This document shows, one piece after another, positions 1-3,000 of a stretch of DNA of 36,373 bases. The stretch comes from a plasmid: NCBI RefSeq assembly GCF_054482525.1, contig NZ_JBTHVG010000006.1; one strand, written 5' to 3'. Made by a program: the position numbers. Every line of letters begins with the position of its first letter. Positions within the stretch are counted from its first letter, which is position 1.

Positions 1-3000
1 TAAAATGAAATGCTCATCTGTTTTTACTTCAACCACTAATCATGTTTTCACATTCGAACGAGTAACGCTTTGCACTATTATCCTTATGCATAAGGATACT
101 GGACAACAGTATGTTGTCATATTTACTGATAACAATAAAATTCGTGACTATAAAGCCGGAATTGTTCCTCAGTTTGGCGAACTTAAGCAGAGTGATGTTG
201 ATTTAGTCCTTTTCTACAGGGACGAATATGAAAAATATTTTGATTCATTAAAAGATGGCGATGAATGCTTGAGTTTTAAAGATTTTATTGAGTGTCTTTG
301 TTAAGCATTATGAATGCAGGGGCATCCCTGCATTTTCTGGAAATTTCAATATTGATTCTGAAATTGTCTATTAACATCAATGCAAGGGAAATTCATGAAA
401 ACGTTAAAACAAGCCGCAATGCAGTTTGCATCTGATCTGCGTAATAATCGCTGTTTTAAAGCTGCTTATAATGATGCTCTGTTAGAGCTTGATCGGGAAG
501 ATTTAAACGCCATTGTACAATGCACATTTCTTTTTGAGCCAAAACGAACATTAGCCGAACTTGATAAATTAATTAAAAAGATAGAAGTAGAAGAAGATTA
601 TGAGTTTTGTGTATCCCTTGATAAAGGTAAAGGATTACACGAAGTCAGAACATTTAAAAGTGAGCGTGAGGCGTTGGATGCTTATCGCATTTTGACTCTT
701 TACGGATACACAGTAACTATAGAAAAGAAGGAGGGTAATGACTGACTATTCAAGGTGTGATCAGGTTGTTCCACCAACCTGATCACGTTATCGACAATCA
801 AAACTGAATGAGGTTTTTAAATGTCAACGCGGCAGATCGTACAGCTTGCTGATTCCCTTGTCAAAGGCTGGGAAACCAGAATTCCGGCAATGAAATTTAG
901 CGAATGGGATCAATTCCGGTGGTGGTTAAACTACTTGCAAGGGTATGAAATGTTTTAAATAAAAAAAGGGGCTTTCTGCCCCTTTGTATTTTTTGACAAA
1001 AATGCCATGTGTAACTATAATTAGTTGCATATCTATAGGGGATGGATTTATGGGGAAAACAGATAAGCTACTGGCAAAGTTTTTAAACAGTAAAAAAACG
1101 TTTGAATGGGATGAACTGGTCGTTTTGTTTTCCTCTTTGGGATATGTCAAAAAGGAAATGCAGGGGTCAAGAGTGCGGTTTTTCAATGCTGAAATCAATC
1201 ACACCATATTAATGCATCGTCCACATCCGGAAAGTTATATCAAAGGTGGTACGCTGAAAGCAATTAAACAGAATCTGAAAGAGGCTGGATTATTATGAAA
1301 CATTTAAAATATAAAGGATATTTAGGCACGGTTGAACCCGATTTTGAAAATAATGTCCTGTATGGAAAACTGGCGTTTATTCGGGACCTGGTAACTTATG
1401 AGGCTTCTACATTAGCTGAACTGGAACAGGAGTTTAAAACATCTGTTGATCTGTATTTACAGTCTTGTGTGGAGGATGGAAAGGAACCTGATACCCCGTT
1501 TAAAGGCGTATTTAACGTCAGGCTTGATCCAGAACTGCATCGTCGGGTAGCAGAAATGGCGATGGAAGAAGATTTATCGTTGAATGCCTTTGTTAATAAG
1601 GCTCTGGAAAAAGAAGTCAGCAATCATCGCGCAGGGGCTTAATTGCCCTTGTTTTTATGCCCTGTAAGGGCATGGGAGGCGCTTTGCGCCGGAAGCCCCG
1701 CAGCGCAGCGAGGACTTAAAAAGCGTTACGGCTTCAGCCGTAACAATTCCCAGCCCTGCCAGGCCTGTTTTTTCTTTCACAAATCTTTCAGCTATACGTT
1801 TGCCTGATGGTCGAAGACGAAAGAATCTTTCAGCAACGAAATCTGGACATATGCAGCGACGATTTTATAGCCAGGCACAGTGCCACATATGGTACAATCA
1901 ATGCAGGATAGACAATCCGATGTCAAATGTTAACATTTGAATCAGATTGTCCAAAAACGATGTTTTTGCCTGTGCCTGCCGCAGGCTCTGTTGGGGTGAC
2001 TTATGAAGATGATAGCGTTCAGGCTAAGTGATGATGAGTTAAAATTTGCAGAACATAACGCTATTTTAAGTGGATTTACCAGTATCAATGCTTTTGCTAA
2101 GCATAACGTGCTTAATATTGAAACCAAGCCTGTTAACATCCCAGTTAATAATGAACCAGCAAAGCTGGTATCAGTGCGTCTTTACCCTCATGAAATAGAA
2201 CTTGTTAAACGTAATGCTGCTCTTCACGGCATGAGCATGAGCAGAGAAATTGCTATTCGTGTGCGTCAGTCTTTGTTAAAGAGTGAAGTCTGTCTTTACC
2301 CTGATGAAGTTAAGGAACTTAAAAAACTATCAACTGCTGTAGATCGTGTTGGTCGCAACATTCATTTTATCATAAAAGGTGAAAGATTCTGTACGGTTAA
2401 CGATCCAGATTTCAGAAAAGACGTTATTGAAGTGATTGAACTGTGTAAGCAAATTGATTCAAAACTTGAAACGTTAACCAAGAGTGTTGTTAACAGATTT
2501 GGGTGATTTATGGGTGTGTATGTAGAACAGGAATACCGTATTAAACGCGCTAAAGGGACTGGGCGTGATCCGAAATCTCCTAAGTTATCGGGAAGACATA
2601 TACATGCCAGTAAATCGGCTTTTAATCATAAAGTCAGACATGGTGCGGACAAGAAAGCATATACCTGGACACCTACAAAAGAAGTCACTTTTAAAATCAC
2701 TGGCTCAGGTAAAACAGCCGCAGGCATCAAAAATGGTATTGATTACATTACCCGTAATGGTGAACTTGAGGCTTACTGTTATGATGGAAAAGGTTCAGAG
2801 CAAACAGGGAAAGGAGAAGACTTTAATAGGGAGTTTACTTCAACTTTATCTAAAGGAAATGATTACTCCAGGACATATCGTGGAGAAAACATCGATCATG
2901 TGAAAAACATGGTCTTTTCACCACCACCAGAAGCTGGAGTAAGCAGGGAAGACGCTCTGAAAGCTACGGTAGAATTTCTTAAAGAGACTTATCCAAACCA

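Follow-up and report, generated by a model that had tools for sequence, protein, structure and literature searches.

A putative G-site-like single-strand initiation module beside oriT in an IncX4 plasmid

A conserved hairpin module between hicB and oriT

An ~115-nt module on the + strand of an IncX4 plasmid of the mcr-1 colistin resistance type (positions 1652 to 1765) is probably a primase-dependent single-strand initiation signal, whose primer would begin at T1757 and run leftward. The window, i.e., the whole stretch analyzed, comprises 36,373 nucleotides of contig NZ_JBTHVG010000006.1 (assembly GCF_054482525.1), in which the block is flanked by the hicB stop codon (1640 to 1642) and by a duplicated oriT core. 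This kind of signal is already known as the G site, and the version described here, named K-type after the Klebsiella IncFII(K) plasmids that carry the majority of its copies, would be a new member. The features of the window are as follows.

1652 to 1765, + strand: whole element, putative G-site-like single-strand initiation module (nhmmer with the family profile, match 1652 to 1775, E = 1e-37; alignments A2 and A5)
1653 to 1657, + strand: T-run at the 5' edge of the element (T-rich run 5' of hairpin A in most copies, A5)
1657 to 1673, + strand: hairpin A, ATGCCCT-gta-AGGGCAT (perfect 6- to 7-bp stem in 20/20 copies examined)
1671 to 1681, + strand: conserved block CATGGGAGGCG (almost invariant in A5)
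1678 to 1690, + strand: hairpin B, GGCGC-ttt-GCGCC (99.4% of cells paired)
1691 to 1715, + strand: invariant block GGAAGCCCCGCAGCGCAGCGAGGAC, with mini-hairpin GCGCAGC at 1703 to 1709 (A5)
1725 to 1744, + strand: hairpin C, GTTACGGC-ttca-GCCGTAAC (96.4% paired)
1745 to 1765, + strand: start block AATTCCCAGCCCTGCCAGGCC, with CTG at 1756 to 1758 (CTG offset conserved; predicted primer start opposite T1757, toward lower coordinates)
1760 to 1773, + strand: caggcctg and T6, 3' flank, no hairpin (GCCTGTTTTT flanks phage copies too)
1899 to 1992, no strand assigned: oriT1 core (inverted-form duplicate at 29794 to 29887; inverted repeat at 1911 to 1951)
36102 to 36248, - strand: second G-site-like element, R100-type (nhmmer with the A6 profile, E = 1.6e-28)
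34022 to 34168, - strand: third G-site-like element, R100-type (repeat copy of the element at 36102 to 36248; nhmmer with the A6 profile)

The earlier note had claimed at least four palindromes within ~130 bp, and the four that it listed are in place: gccctgtaagggc at 1659 to 1671, which can be extended to hairpin A; ggcgctttgcgcc at 1678 to 1690; gttacggc-ttca-gccgtaac at 1725 to 1744; and caggcctg at 1760 to 1767, followed by T6 at 1768 to 1773. The last is a loop-less 8-nt palindrome that cannot fold. The three foldable palindromes (hairpins A, B, and C) have stems of 7, 5, and 8 to 9 bp, respectively, and the GC content of the block is 56 to 57%, versus ~30 to 45% in its surroundings. Two further elements had been overlooked, namely, the mini-hairpin motif GCGCAGC, a fifth element, and the conserved CTG. 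The T-run at 1653 to 1657 doubles as the tail of a terminator-like hairpin of hicB (1631 to 1652) called in a terminator scan.

The hairpin density had been considered unusual for a simple terminator, and it is indeed uncommon, though it has parallels elsewhere in the plasmid: only 4 of 2,000 shuffles of the region equaled its total stem length, but so did 2.4% of the 136-nt windows across the 36-kb sequence. Folded as single-stranded DNA (ssDNA), the block had z-scores of -2.5 (+ strand) and -3.3 (- strand). The reality of the block as a feature rests on its conservation and not on its density.

Conservation and covariation of the stems

The block is present, unannotated, in about 1,550 plasmid records, and more than 1,000 of these, with other backbones, carry it at ~82% identity. 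Among 35 distinct copies, 95% of stem cells were paired and compensatory changes were found in nine pairs, a level of pairing and compensation reached by none of 500 shuffles; slid controls paired at 17 to 45%. Each of the three hairpins contributed three of these pairs. Hairpin A had at least four different stem sequences among 20 copies; changes in hairpin B affected 3 of its 5 pairs (e.g., GGCGT/ACGCC, GGCAC/GTGCC, and GTCGC/GCGAC); and those in hairpin C included GTTATGGC/GCCATAAT in phage copies. Hairpins B and C were also recovered independently by RNAalifold. GGGAGG might also pair over a long range with the C-run 5' of CTG, and both sides of this possible helix are invariant among copies.

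Wobble pairs in the stems were strongly asymmetric, with 18 G.T pairs versus 1 A.C pair, which identifies the + strand as the structured strand; hairpin C has many G.T wobbles, on the + strand only. Covariation alone does not separate ssDNA from a + sense RNA. The wobble asymmetry and the constant strand of the module in inoviruses and IncFII plasmids suggest, indirectly, that the block acts only as ssDNA, on one strand.

When GTDB genomes were scanned with a 25-nt pattern, 67 loci were obtained. About 45 of the 67, in GC-rich or nonenterobacterial genomes, were rejected as the element because they matched nothing beyond this pattern, and Rfam offered no explanation for them. Contigs of Erwinia dacicola carry several copies of the module.

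Relationship to the G site of R100 and R1

In the IncFII plasmids R1 and R100, the primase-dependent priming signal ~400 bp downstream of oriR is called the G site, or ssiA. The ends of the module align with R100 positions 40375 to 40535 (- strand), ~360 bp (364 bp) past oriR, a region that, judged by its position, we take to be the mapped primase G site. Its location in R100 reportedly goes back to Masai and Arai in 1989, Bernander et al. in 1992, and Tanaka et al. in 1994, the last of whom are also said to have found conserved end domains and a dispensable middle in the G site. A pattern of this type resembles the one seen across the module and R100, and in the A6 alignment (R100, R6K, IncX1, and IncX3), two end domains enclose a variable middle.

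The R100/R1 site and the module have in common hairpin A followed by CATGG(A/G)AGGCG, a block of the form CCG(A/C)AGC(C/G)C, and CCCAGCCCTGCCAG(A/G)CC as the start block. The counterpart of CATGGGAGGCG is CATGGAAGGC(G) in R100, IncX1, and IncX3, and R6K also shares this block (A6). The middles differ: that of the R100 site holds an extended AT-rich insertion, as well as a GCGTAAGC hairpin with TACTG after it, whereas that of the module consists of hairpin B, GCGCAGC, and hairpin C. In IncFII plasmids, the module lies ~400 bp (about 360 to 430 bp) beyond oriR and ~700 to 800 bp past repA, always on the strand opposite repA; the IncFII(K) copies occupy the same locus and strand as the R100/R1 site, and they share the flanks of R100 40375 to 40535. 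The element in our window, on the other hand, adjoins oriT rather than a replication origin. Profile searches of R6K, R100, and G4 gave no significant whole-element match, and the match to R100 had an E value of about 5, so the link between the module and R100 rests on blocks, order, position, and flanks. The second profile (A6), used after the first, related the module to both R100 and R6K.

Relationship to primase origins of Microviridae phages

The complementary-strand origins of G4, alpha3, and St-1 (Microviridae) resemble the module in that a CTG start triplet is preceded on its 5' side by GC-rich hairpins; in the module, three hairpins and the mini-hairpin precede the start site. The family start block, CTGC(A/T/C)A(A/G)(A/G)CC, equals ACTGCAAAGCC of G4, which occurs only once in that genome, at 3995 to 4005, where the G4 record places the RNA primer at 3970 to 3997 and the origin at 3998. 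The alpha3/St-1 start block is CCTGCTAAGCCC; CCTGCTAAGCCCAAAA, which is identical to the start block of some plasmid copies, lies in the G-H intergenic region of these phages. R100, R6K, and IncX3 have CCCTGCCAG(A/G)CC, and the 5'-CTG-3' triplet lies in a block common to the known G sites (G4, alpha3/St-1, and R100). The start block of our window, CTGCCAGGCC, is identical to that of IncX3 and differs at one position from those of R100 and R6K. CTG was found 9 to 12 nt 3' of hairpin C in 24 of 26 copies. Two points count against the priming reading here: CTG is absent from 2 of the 35 distinct copies, and CTGCCAGGCC agrees with G4 at 8 of 10 positions.

An ssDNA mini-hairpin with the consensus GCGNAGC/GCGNNAGC has been described for the G4, St-1, and alpha3 origins (PMC13037366), and the module has the same motif: its variants among copies (GCGAAGC, GCGCAGC, and GCGTTAGC) each fit this consensus, and the counterparts are GCGAAAGC in hairpin I of G4 and GCGTAAGC in R100. 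The 5' arm of alpha3 hairpin I, GGAAGGCG, resembles the block that follows hairpin A in the module (1671 to 1681), which alpha3 and St-1 share. The phage origins differ from the module in the number of hairpins and in spacing, with CTG only 3 to 5 nt from the last hairpin, and there is no overall sequence homology; when the block was compared with 50,697 phage records by blastn, the sole match was a spurious one of 25 nt. The link to G4, alpha3, and St-1 is visible at the level of the start block only.

Filamentous phages, IncN plasmids, and other classes of initiation signal

Ten inoviruses carry the module, always on the coding (virion) strand and ~100 nt after gene IV, and copies on IncN plasmids lie in the leading region, on the predicted transferred strand. 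One inovirus copy is at 6947 to 7074 of the Lelliottia contig NZ_SDDX01000040.1. The IncFII, inovirus, and IncN contexts all fit use of the module as an ssDNA template. The earlier note had named a single-strand initiation signal as one of two candidates, and this proposal gains support from the start block common to G4, alpha3, and St-1, from the end blocks common to R100, and from the placement on the virion strand of ten filamentous phages.

Several classes of such signals (ssi) have been reported on conjugative plasmids, including Frpo/ssiD of F and ssi2 and ssi3 of ColIb-P9, which lie in leading regions and work on the single strand as it enters (PMC7690428). That the block belongs to a class other than the G site, whether an ssDNA promoter read by RNA polymerase (Frpo or Ff minus-origin type), a site of the phiX174 type for PriA/n' primosome assembly, or, as for the ABC primosome, a hairpin with a DnaA box, fits this variety and the position of the inovirus copies but is unlikely. 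The inovirus copies occupy the place, after gene IV on the virion strand, where the Ff phages (f1/M13) have their minus-strand origin, and the Ff origin and the putative module function would both be hairpin-based signals for conversion of ssDNA to double-stranded DNA. To RNA polymerase, which reads it, the Ff origin mimics a promoter; the module differs in having short stems and the CTG start block of primase origins. Similarly, Frpo is a hairpin of ~330 nt with -35 and -10 boxes that is read by RNA polymerase, whereas the module is 115 nt long and has stems of 5 to 9 bp, too short for a -35/-10 duplex mimic. No stem exceeds 9 bp, and the promoter scan called nothing promoter-like in 1640 to 1775. 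The block contains no DnaA box TTATCCACA, the nearest one found being the oriR box of IncFII plasmids, and the conserved CTG block common to three primase origins likewise argues against these classes. The ssiA and ssiB signals at oriV of RSF1010 are also short hairpin signals, one per strand, with the mini-hairpin motif (PMC13037366), but they are 40 nt long and have no sequence similarity to the module. A further difference is that RSF1010 ssiA and ssiB are recognized not by DnaG but by RepB', a primase of the plasmid itself.

Possible roles in RNA

The element lies directly 3' of hicB on the sense strand, and the + strand is the mRNA-sense strand in the phages as well as in IncX4, which weighs against the priming reading. 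It is nevertheless very unlikely that the block acts in RNA, be it as a small RNA, as a cluster of terminators, or, in the hicAB transcript, as a structured 3' untranslated region or stabilizer, even though covariation is equally compatible with RNA and ssDNA. Rfam had no match in the block, either at the gathering score or at E values up to 10, and none better than E = 0.64 in 1400 to 2100. Homology ends at the T-run, leaving no conserved promoter (A5); the + sense has no co-oriented gene upstream in IncFII and IncN plasmids; and the motif that the mini-hairpin variants fit is specific to DNA. Hairpin C and the CTTTTT that follows it on the - strand score as terminator-like, but the 18-to-1 wobble asymmetry, indicating selection on the + strand, argues against this role. 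An intrinsic terminator on the + strand was rejected: hairpins A, B, and C are not followed by a T-run, caggcctg cannot fold, and none was called.

The oriT neighborhood and IncX relatives

The nick motif of oriT1, TATCCTG|CA, reads on the - strand from 1910 to 1902, which, by the RP4-type consensus, would place the nick between 1904 and 1903, 147 nt from the element and on the opposite strand. A G-site-like element was found in the same place and orientation in IncX1, IncX2 (R6K), IncX3, IncX4, and IncX7 plasmids, in an X-like plasmid, and in a Morganella plasmid, at 147 to 226 nt from the nick motif where this distance was measured. CTATCCTGCAT is invariant across all IncX oriTs and is always on the strand opposite the element. 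The comparison with R6K proposed in the earlier note yielded no full copy of the block, but it did reveal an end-block variant with a different middle, in the same place and orientation upstream of oriT. A pi iteron, which would mark an alpha-like origin, was not found near the element, with up to 6 mismatches allowed for IncX4 and up to 5 for R6K.

The other candidate of the earlier note, oriT accessory sites, gained no support. Proximity to the predicted nick and the presence of a related block at this place in every IncX subgroup would suit binding sites for TaxA, TaxC, or IHF that aid relaxosome assembly, but we consider such a role highly improbable. The block does not travel with the oriT unit: it lies outside the duplicated core and is absent from the duplicate at 29794 to 29887, and the identical module occurs far from any oriT, beside oriR of IncFII plasmids and in relaxase-less inoviruses, as well as in the IncN leading region. 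Moreover, conservation tracks hairpin pairing and reveals no repeated protein-binding word, and likelier accessory motifs, GGTCGAAGAC and the repeat AATCTTTCAGC, are outside the block, at 1782 to 1834. It is barely credible that the block is a functionless hitchhiking GC-rich repeat or remnant, despite its foreign composition, its scatter over unrelated backbones, and the multiple copies in E. dacicola, because it has no terminal repeats or target duplications, its orientation relative to repA, the nick, or phage genes is fixed in every context, and compensatory change preserves its stems.

A model for priming at oriT

In the preferred reading, that of a primase-dependent signal of the G4 type, we infer the dependence on primase, the exact start point, and the event that exposes the strand. 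The signal would be inactive in duplex DNA. Once the + strand is single-stranded and coated with the ssDNA-binding protein SSB, hairpins A, B, and C and GCGCAGC would fold and stay SSB-free, and DnaG primase would bind and begin a short RNA primer at the 5'-CTG-3' at 1756 to 1758, with the first nucleotide opposite T1757. DNA polymerase III would then extend this primer to lower coordinates, across hicB and then hicA.

The predicted nick maps 147 nt to the right, in the opposite strand. If the relaxosome melts and unwinds the DNA from oriT1, the site would therefore be exposed first, with synthesis from it trailing behind the unwinding. Replication origin alpha and oriT are at the same place in plasmids of the R6K type. 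The resulting event might be either donor replacement-strand synthesis or a start of the alpha-origin type. Two considerations weigh against this model. Transfer from oriT1 leaves behind the strand that bears the IncX4 element, which means that the classic role in complementary-strand synthesis in the recipient does not directly apply, and in the donor, the site could become redundant through extension of the nick 3'-OH. Alternatively, the site might be exposed by transfer from the inverted oriT2, which would make the + strand the transferred strand. An attempt to exclude this scenario through relatives with no second oriT failed, as two inverted oriT cores were present in all four IncX relatives checked.

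Implications for plasmid transfer and establishment

At every IncX oriT checked, the element is on the nontransferred strand and points along relaxosome unwinding. The IncX oriT element could be an actual start of DNA synthesis at oriT, i.e., origin alpha or the start of donor replacement synthesis. It is an old observation that origin alpha of R6K coincides with the relaxation nick, and oriT-side priming, if true, would account for it.

G-site-like elements on the transferred strand lie just upstream of promoter-gene units in IncN and in this IncX4 plasmid. The two minus-strand elements of the latter have promoter-like sites nearby in a promoter scan, on the + strand at 36289 to 36317 following the element at 36102 to 36248 and at 34209 to 34237 beside that at 34022 to 34168. 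In their leading-region location upstream of such units, these elements and the IncN copies resemble Frpo, ssi2, and ssi3. If they are active, second strands made by primase would turn on establishment genes early, with no need for an ssDNA promoter of the Frpo type. We speculate, with considerable doubt, that these observations belong together, with G sites serving more than IncFII replication and forming a general, exchangeable module of conjugation that provides a start of DNA synthesis on the oriT side in IncX plasmids and, in leading regions, switches on establishment genes early.

IncX4 plasmids are a main vehicle of mcr-1, and to our knowledge, the copying of their DNA during and after transfer is poorly described. 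As putative priming signals for primase, the block and the two opposite-strand elements would be cis-acting sites at which plasmid establishment and oriT replication can be tested. Such signals are unannotated in all plasmid records listed, although the searches counted many records, at least 5,000 with the R100 type and some 1,550 with the K type, and the family profile together with the CTG block could be used to annotate them. The inovirus copies suggest, from their sequence and placement, that a group of filamentous phages of enterobacteria may use the same module as complementary-strand origin. A module common to conjugative plasmids and filamentous phages would mean that elements with a single-stranded stage exchange the signals by which ssDNA is handled.

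Position and folding of the hairpin block

The hairpin block lies upstream of oriT in a region (window positions 1000 to 2600) identical to that of 33- to 35-kb IncX4 plasmids, e.g., pKP4823_mcr, with the gene order hicA, hicB, hairpin block, oriT, taxA, and taxC. The window has no end-to-end self-repeat and so may be near the whole plasmid.

1050-1298, hicA
1295-1642, hicB
1657-1673, + strand, hairpin A (ATGCCCT-gta-AGGGCAT)
1678-1690, + strand, hairpin B (GGCGC-ttt-GCGCC)
1725-1744, + strand, hairpin C (GTTACGGC-ttca-GCCGTAAC)
1760-1767, caggcctg without a loop, followed by T6
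2003-2506, taxA
2510-3739, taxC

All four palindromes described in the earlier note are present, and three can fold as hairpins, but caggcctg with its T6 is loop-less and was not called as a + strand terminator. The block has a G+C content of 56 to 57%, versus ~30 to 45% in its surroundings, and folding z-scores of -2.5 and -3.3. Its hairpin density, which had been called unusual, is rare in shuffled sequence (summed stem length reached by 4 of 2,000 shuffles) but not unique, being equalled in 2.4% of same-size windows across the 36 kb. A terminator-like hairpin at 1631-1652 (GCAGGGGC-ttaatt-GCCCTTGT) overlaps the hicB stop codon, and its T-run forms the 5' edge of the element. Across the window, perfect inverted repeats are most densely clustered at 23000-24480, between hns-like and parA-like genes; many are based on GACATAC/GTATGTC, and the cluster may contain sites for partition or regulation. 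Rfam matches an AgrB antisense RNA at 23329-23417 (- strand).

Conservation and covariation of the module

The block gave blastn matches in 1,551 plasmid records, of which 1,082 match window 1652-1765 at 80 to 90% identity; in none of these 1,082 is a feature annotated under the match. Together with one GTDB genome scan and one IMG/VR scan, the blastn plasmid records gave 35 distinct full-length copies of the module, all from Enterobacterales or their phages. Aligned, these copies share a T-run, hairpin A, CATGG(G)AGGCG, hairpin B, an invariant CCGGA..CCCCGCAGCG(A/C)AGCGAGGAC, an A-run, hairpin C, AAT(C/T)CCC, and CTGC(A/T/C)A(A/G)(A/G)CC. The middle-motif variants (GCGAAGC, GCGCAGC, and GCGTTAGC) all agree with the consensus GCGNAGC/GCGNNAGC, a very stable single-stranded DNA mini-hairpin reported at the G4, St-1, and alpha3 primase origins (review PMC13037366).

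Across four helices that we selected, 95% of cells were paired and compensatory changes occurred in 9 pairs, levels reached by none of 500 shuffles; slid controls were 17 to 45% paired. RNAalifold recovered hairpins B and C unaided, and hairpin A is a perfect 6- to 7-bp stem in each of the 20 copies checked, among which at least four different stem sequences occur. Wobbles in the stems comprise 18 G.T versus 1 A.C, indicating that the structure is under selection on the + strand.

A 25-nt core, CCGG..CCCGCAGCG(A/C)AGCGAGGA, occurs in several copies per genome in Bacteroidota, Pontibacter, Kiloniella, and Sphingomonadales assemblies (L034, L035, L028, L032, L013, L022, L014, L036, L030, L031, and others), embedded in a different conserved context of ~90 nt; no Rfam family covers these loci.

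Genomic contexts of the module

In IncFII-type replicons, the module is invariably on the opposite strand to repA and ~700 to 800 bp past that gene; in one such plasmid (L001), positions 4711 (oriR DnaA box) and 4105 (CTG) place the CTG ~430 bp beyond a 188-bp oriR. In IncX-type plasmids, one Pantoea plasmid, and one Erwinia dacicola contig, it is found directly upstream of oriT, co-oriented with the relaxase genes. IncN plasmids have two leading-region copies on the strand opposite the genes, each within a 300-nt repeat and directly upstream of a gene.

The module also occurs in filamentous phages. On a 7,255-nt Lelliottia contig, the genes for a pII-like replication protein, a Zot/pI homologue, a virion structural (coat) protein, protein IV, and further virion and assembly proteins all lie on one strand, which also carries the module (6947-7074), 90 nt after gene IV. 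The nine IMG/VR contigs with the module (L082 to L090) all have homologues of the Lelliottia phage genes and carry the module on the gene strand, ~100 nt after gene IV in each case where this gene was identified. Six of them are 6.8 to 9.9 kb long, two contain two phage units each, and one covers 9.5 kb of an 18.7-kb contig. The virion strand of inoviruses is their coding strand, and Ff phages have their complementary-strand origin in the region after gene IV. Because the module lies on the virion strand after gene IV, these data suggest that this group of ten enterobacterial filamentous phages (7 to 10 kb) has a primase-type complementary-strand origin and not the RNA polymerase type of Ff. 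In all contexts, the module strand exists, or becomes exposed, as a single-stranded template.

A role of the element as RNA is unlikely: Rfam gives no match for it, the module homology ends at the T-run and thus includes no conserved promoter, in IncFII and IncN plasmids no co-oriented gene precedes the + sense, and a terminator-like hairpin C on the - strand is at odds with the wobble asymmetry.

Similarity to primase-dependent origins

In the G4 record, the annotated RNA primer spans 3970-3997 and the origin is placed at 3998; this start region consists of hairpin I (GGACGGCGAAAGCCGCCGTCC) and then CTACTGCAAAGCC. The sequence ACTGCAAAGCC occurs once in G4 (3995-4005), and many module copies, including those of IncN and IncX7 and every phage copy, have exactly this block following their last hairpin. 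Phages alpha3 and St-1 have GGAAGGCGTTAGCCGCCTTCC-CTC-CTGCTAAGCCCAAAA in the G-H intergenic region, and their CCTGCTAAGCCCAAAA is identical to a Klebsiella michiganensis module copy. The start block is CCCTGCCAGGCC in the window and, identically, in IncX3, and CCCTGCCAGACC in R100 and R6K.

On the strand opposite repA, R100 has ATGCCGC-atca-GCGGCAT-GGAAGGCGG, a middle unlike that of the module, and then CCCCAGCCCTGCCAGACC; the CTG is 364 bp past the 188-bp oriR, and the DNA beyond it is common to IncFII(K) plasmids. We take this region past oriR to be the mapped site of the primase-only “G site” of R1/R100, reportedly located by Masai and Arai in 1989 and Bernander et al. in 1992 and said by Tanaka et al. 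in 1994 to have two conserved end domains and a dispensable middle. Directly beyond the IncFII G site, a further GC-rich block with many hairpins, CTGTGCGCGGTCGGAGTGGTC...GTCGGGGCGTATCTCCGCGTTAGCGGGCCGT (L001, 4150-4235; L006, another IncFII-type plasmid, 40280-40360), is conserved; it is common to R100 and Klebsiella-type plasmids and unannotated. Nomura et al. 1991, a study cited in later papers, reportedly mapped single-strand initiation (ssi) signals of F, R6K, R100, and ColE2.

The start block shared with the G4, alpha3, and St-1 origins and the single-stranded contexts favor the ssi signal among the roles suggested in the earlier note. On this comparative basis, the window element is probably an ssi signal and an unannotated new representative of the known G-site kind; no report in the literature searched connects IncX4 with such a signal. 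Other ssi classes lack support, since the stems are short, the element has no DnaA box, and a primase-type CTG block is present.

Relationship to oriT in the IncX family

The suggested comparison with the R6K oriT/alpha region yielded no full module copy but did reveal a variant. R6K, IncX1, IncX3, and a Morganella plasmid carry a related element at the matching place and orientation upstream of oriT, with hairpin A and CAT(G/A)GAAGGC, a different middle, and then GCGCT(T/C)GCGC, CC(C)TG(CCAG/TTAA)(A/G)CC, and a GCGNAGC hairpin. A profile of these variants matched the R6K element at an E value of 6e-32 and the window element at 1e-21.

The IncX-type oriTs examined all share CTATCCTGCAT with an inverted repeat after it; this invariant motif lies on the strand opposite the element, 147 to 226 nt away. 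RP4-type nick sites have the consensus YATCCTG|Y with an inverted repeat 5' of the nick, and CTATCCTGCAT agrees with it. Given this fit, the - strand is most likely the one nicked and transferred at oriT1 (core at 1899-1992). The nick is predicted between 1904 and 1903, with the DNA on its left side most likely the first to enter the recipient.

A second, inverted oriT core was present in all four IncX-type plasmids checked (IncX4, 29876 [+]; IncX7, 19547 [+]; p10P3, 19547 [+]; R6K, 28069 [-]). The window cores (1899-1992 and oriT2 at 29794-29887) are inverted to each other, with the nick motif TATCCTG|CA and inverted repeat; in IncX7, p10P3, and R6K, the two cores flank the pir/origin segment. 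An accessory role at oriT, also proposed earlier, is unlikely for the element because the module is missing from the duplicated core and is found without any oriT. A GTCGAAGAC/GGTCGCAGAC motif, conserved in all IncX-type oriTs ~45 to 60 nt to the right of the element, is more likely than the hairpin block to be a relaxosome accessory site. The direct repeat AATCTTTCAGC (1782-1792 and 1824-1834) lies on both sides of GGTCGAAGAC (1809-1818). No pi iteron was found near the element; six tandem 22-bp iterons (ACCGAGGAAGCTCTCATGTTTA) at 33125-33256, upstream of a pir-like gene (32019-32891, - strand), form a gamma-type origin, with no iteron-like copy near oriT.

Two R100-type elements

A block scan identified two further G-site-like elements with R100-type end blocks (profile E value, 1.6e-28):

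34022-34168, - strand, R100-type element
36102-36248, - strand, R100-type element

Each lies within one copy of a direct repeat that is at least 300 nt long (33880-34300 and 35960-36373) and is followed on the + strand by a promoter-like TTGCAA-17-TATTAT (34209-34237 and 36289-36317) and + strand genes. An operator-like palindrome accompanies each promoter-like sequence. The elements are predicted to be on the T-strand, with 2.2 kb between the nick and the element at 36102-36248 and 4.2 kb between the nick and that at 34022-34168, and extension from them would make the promoter and genes double-stranded first. On the predicted transferred strand, these repeats are candidates for “prime, then express” units; IncN plasmids have the same layout but with the module of the window block.

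Proposed use of the element

During transfer from oriT1, the element would be on the retained strand and would be the first DNA exposed as the T-strand is displaced, and a primer begun at T1757 would be extended in the same direction as unwinding proceeds. The R1 G site has the same geometry relative to oriR as the window element has relative to the oriT1 nick. During transfer from oriT2, the + strand would be the T-strand, with the element 8.3 kb from its 5' end and pointing back toward that end. As a rough split, we tentatively favor + strand exposure by a donor or alpha-type event; exposure as the T-strand from oriT2 and exposure by a passing vegetative fork are each rather unlikely, to an equal degree, and other events would be improbable.

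As summarized in a passage of PMC3332091 citing Flashner et al. 1996, the alpha and beta origin repeats of R6K-like plasmids contain oriT-alpha and oriT-beta, and Tax/Ddp proteins distort the DNA there. Because the oriTs lie inside these repeats, a start at the element could serve alpha-type replication, donor replacement synthesis, or both.
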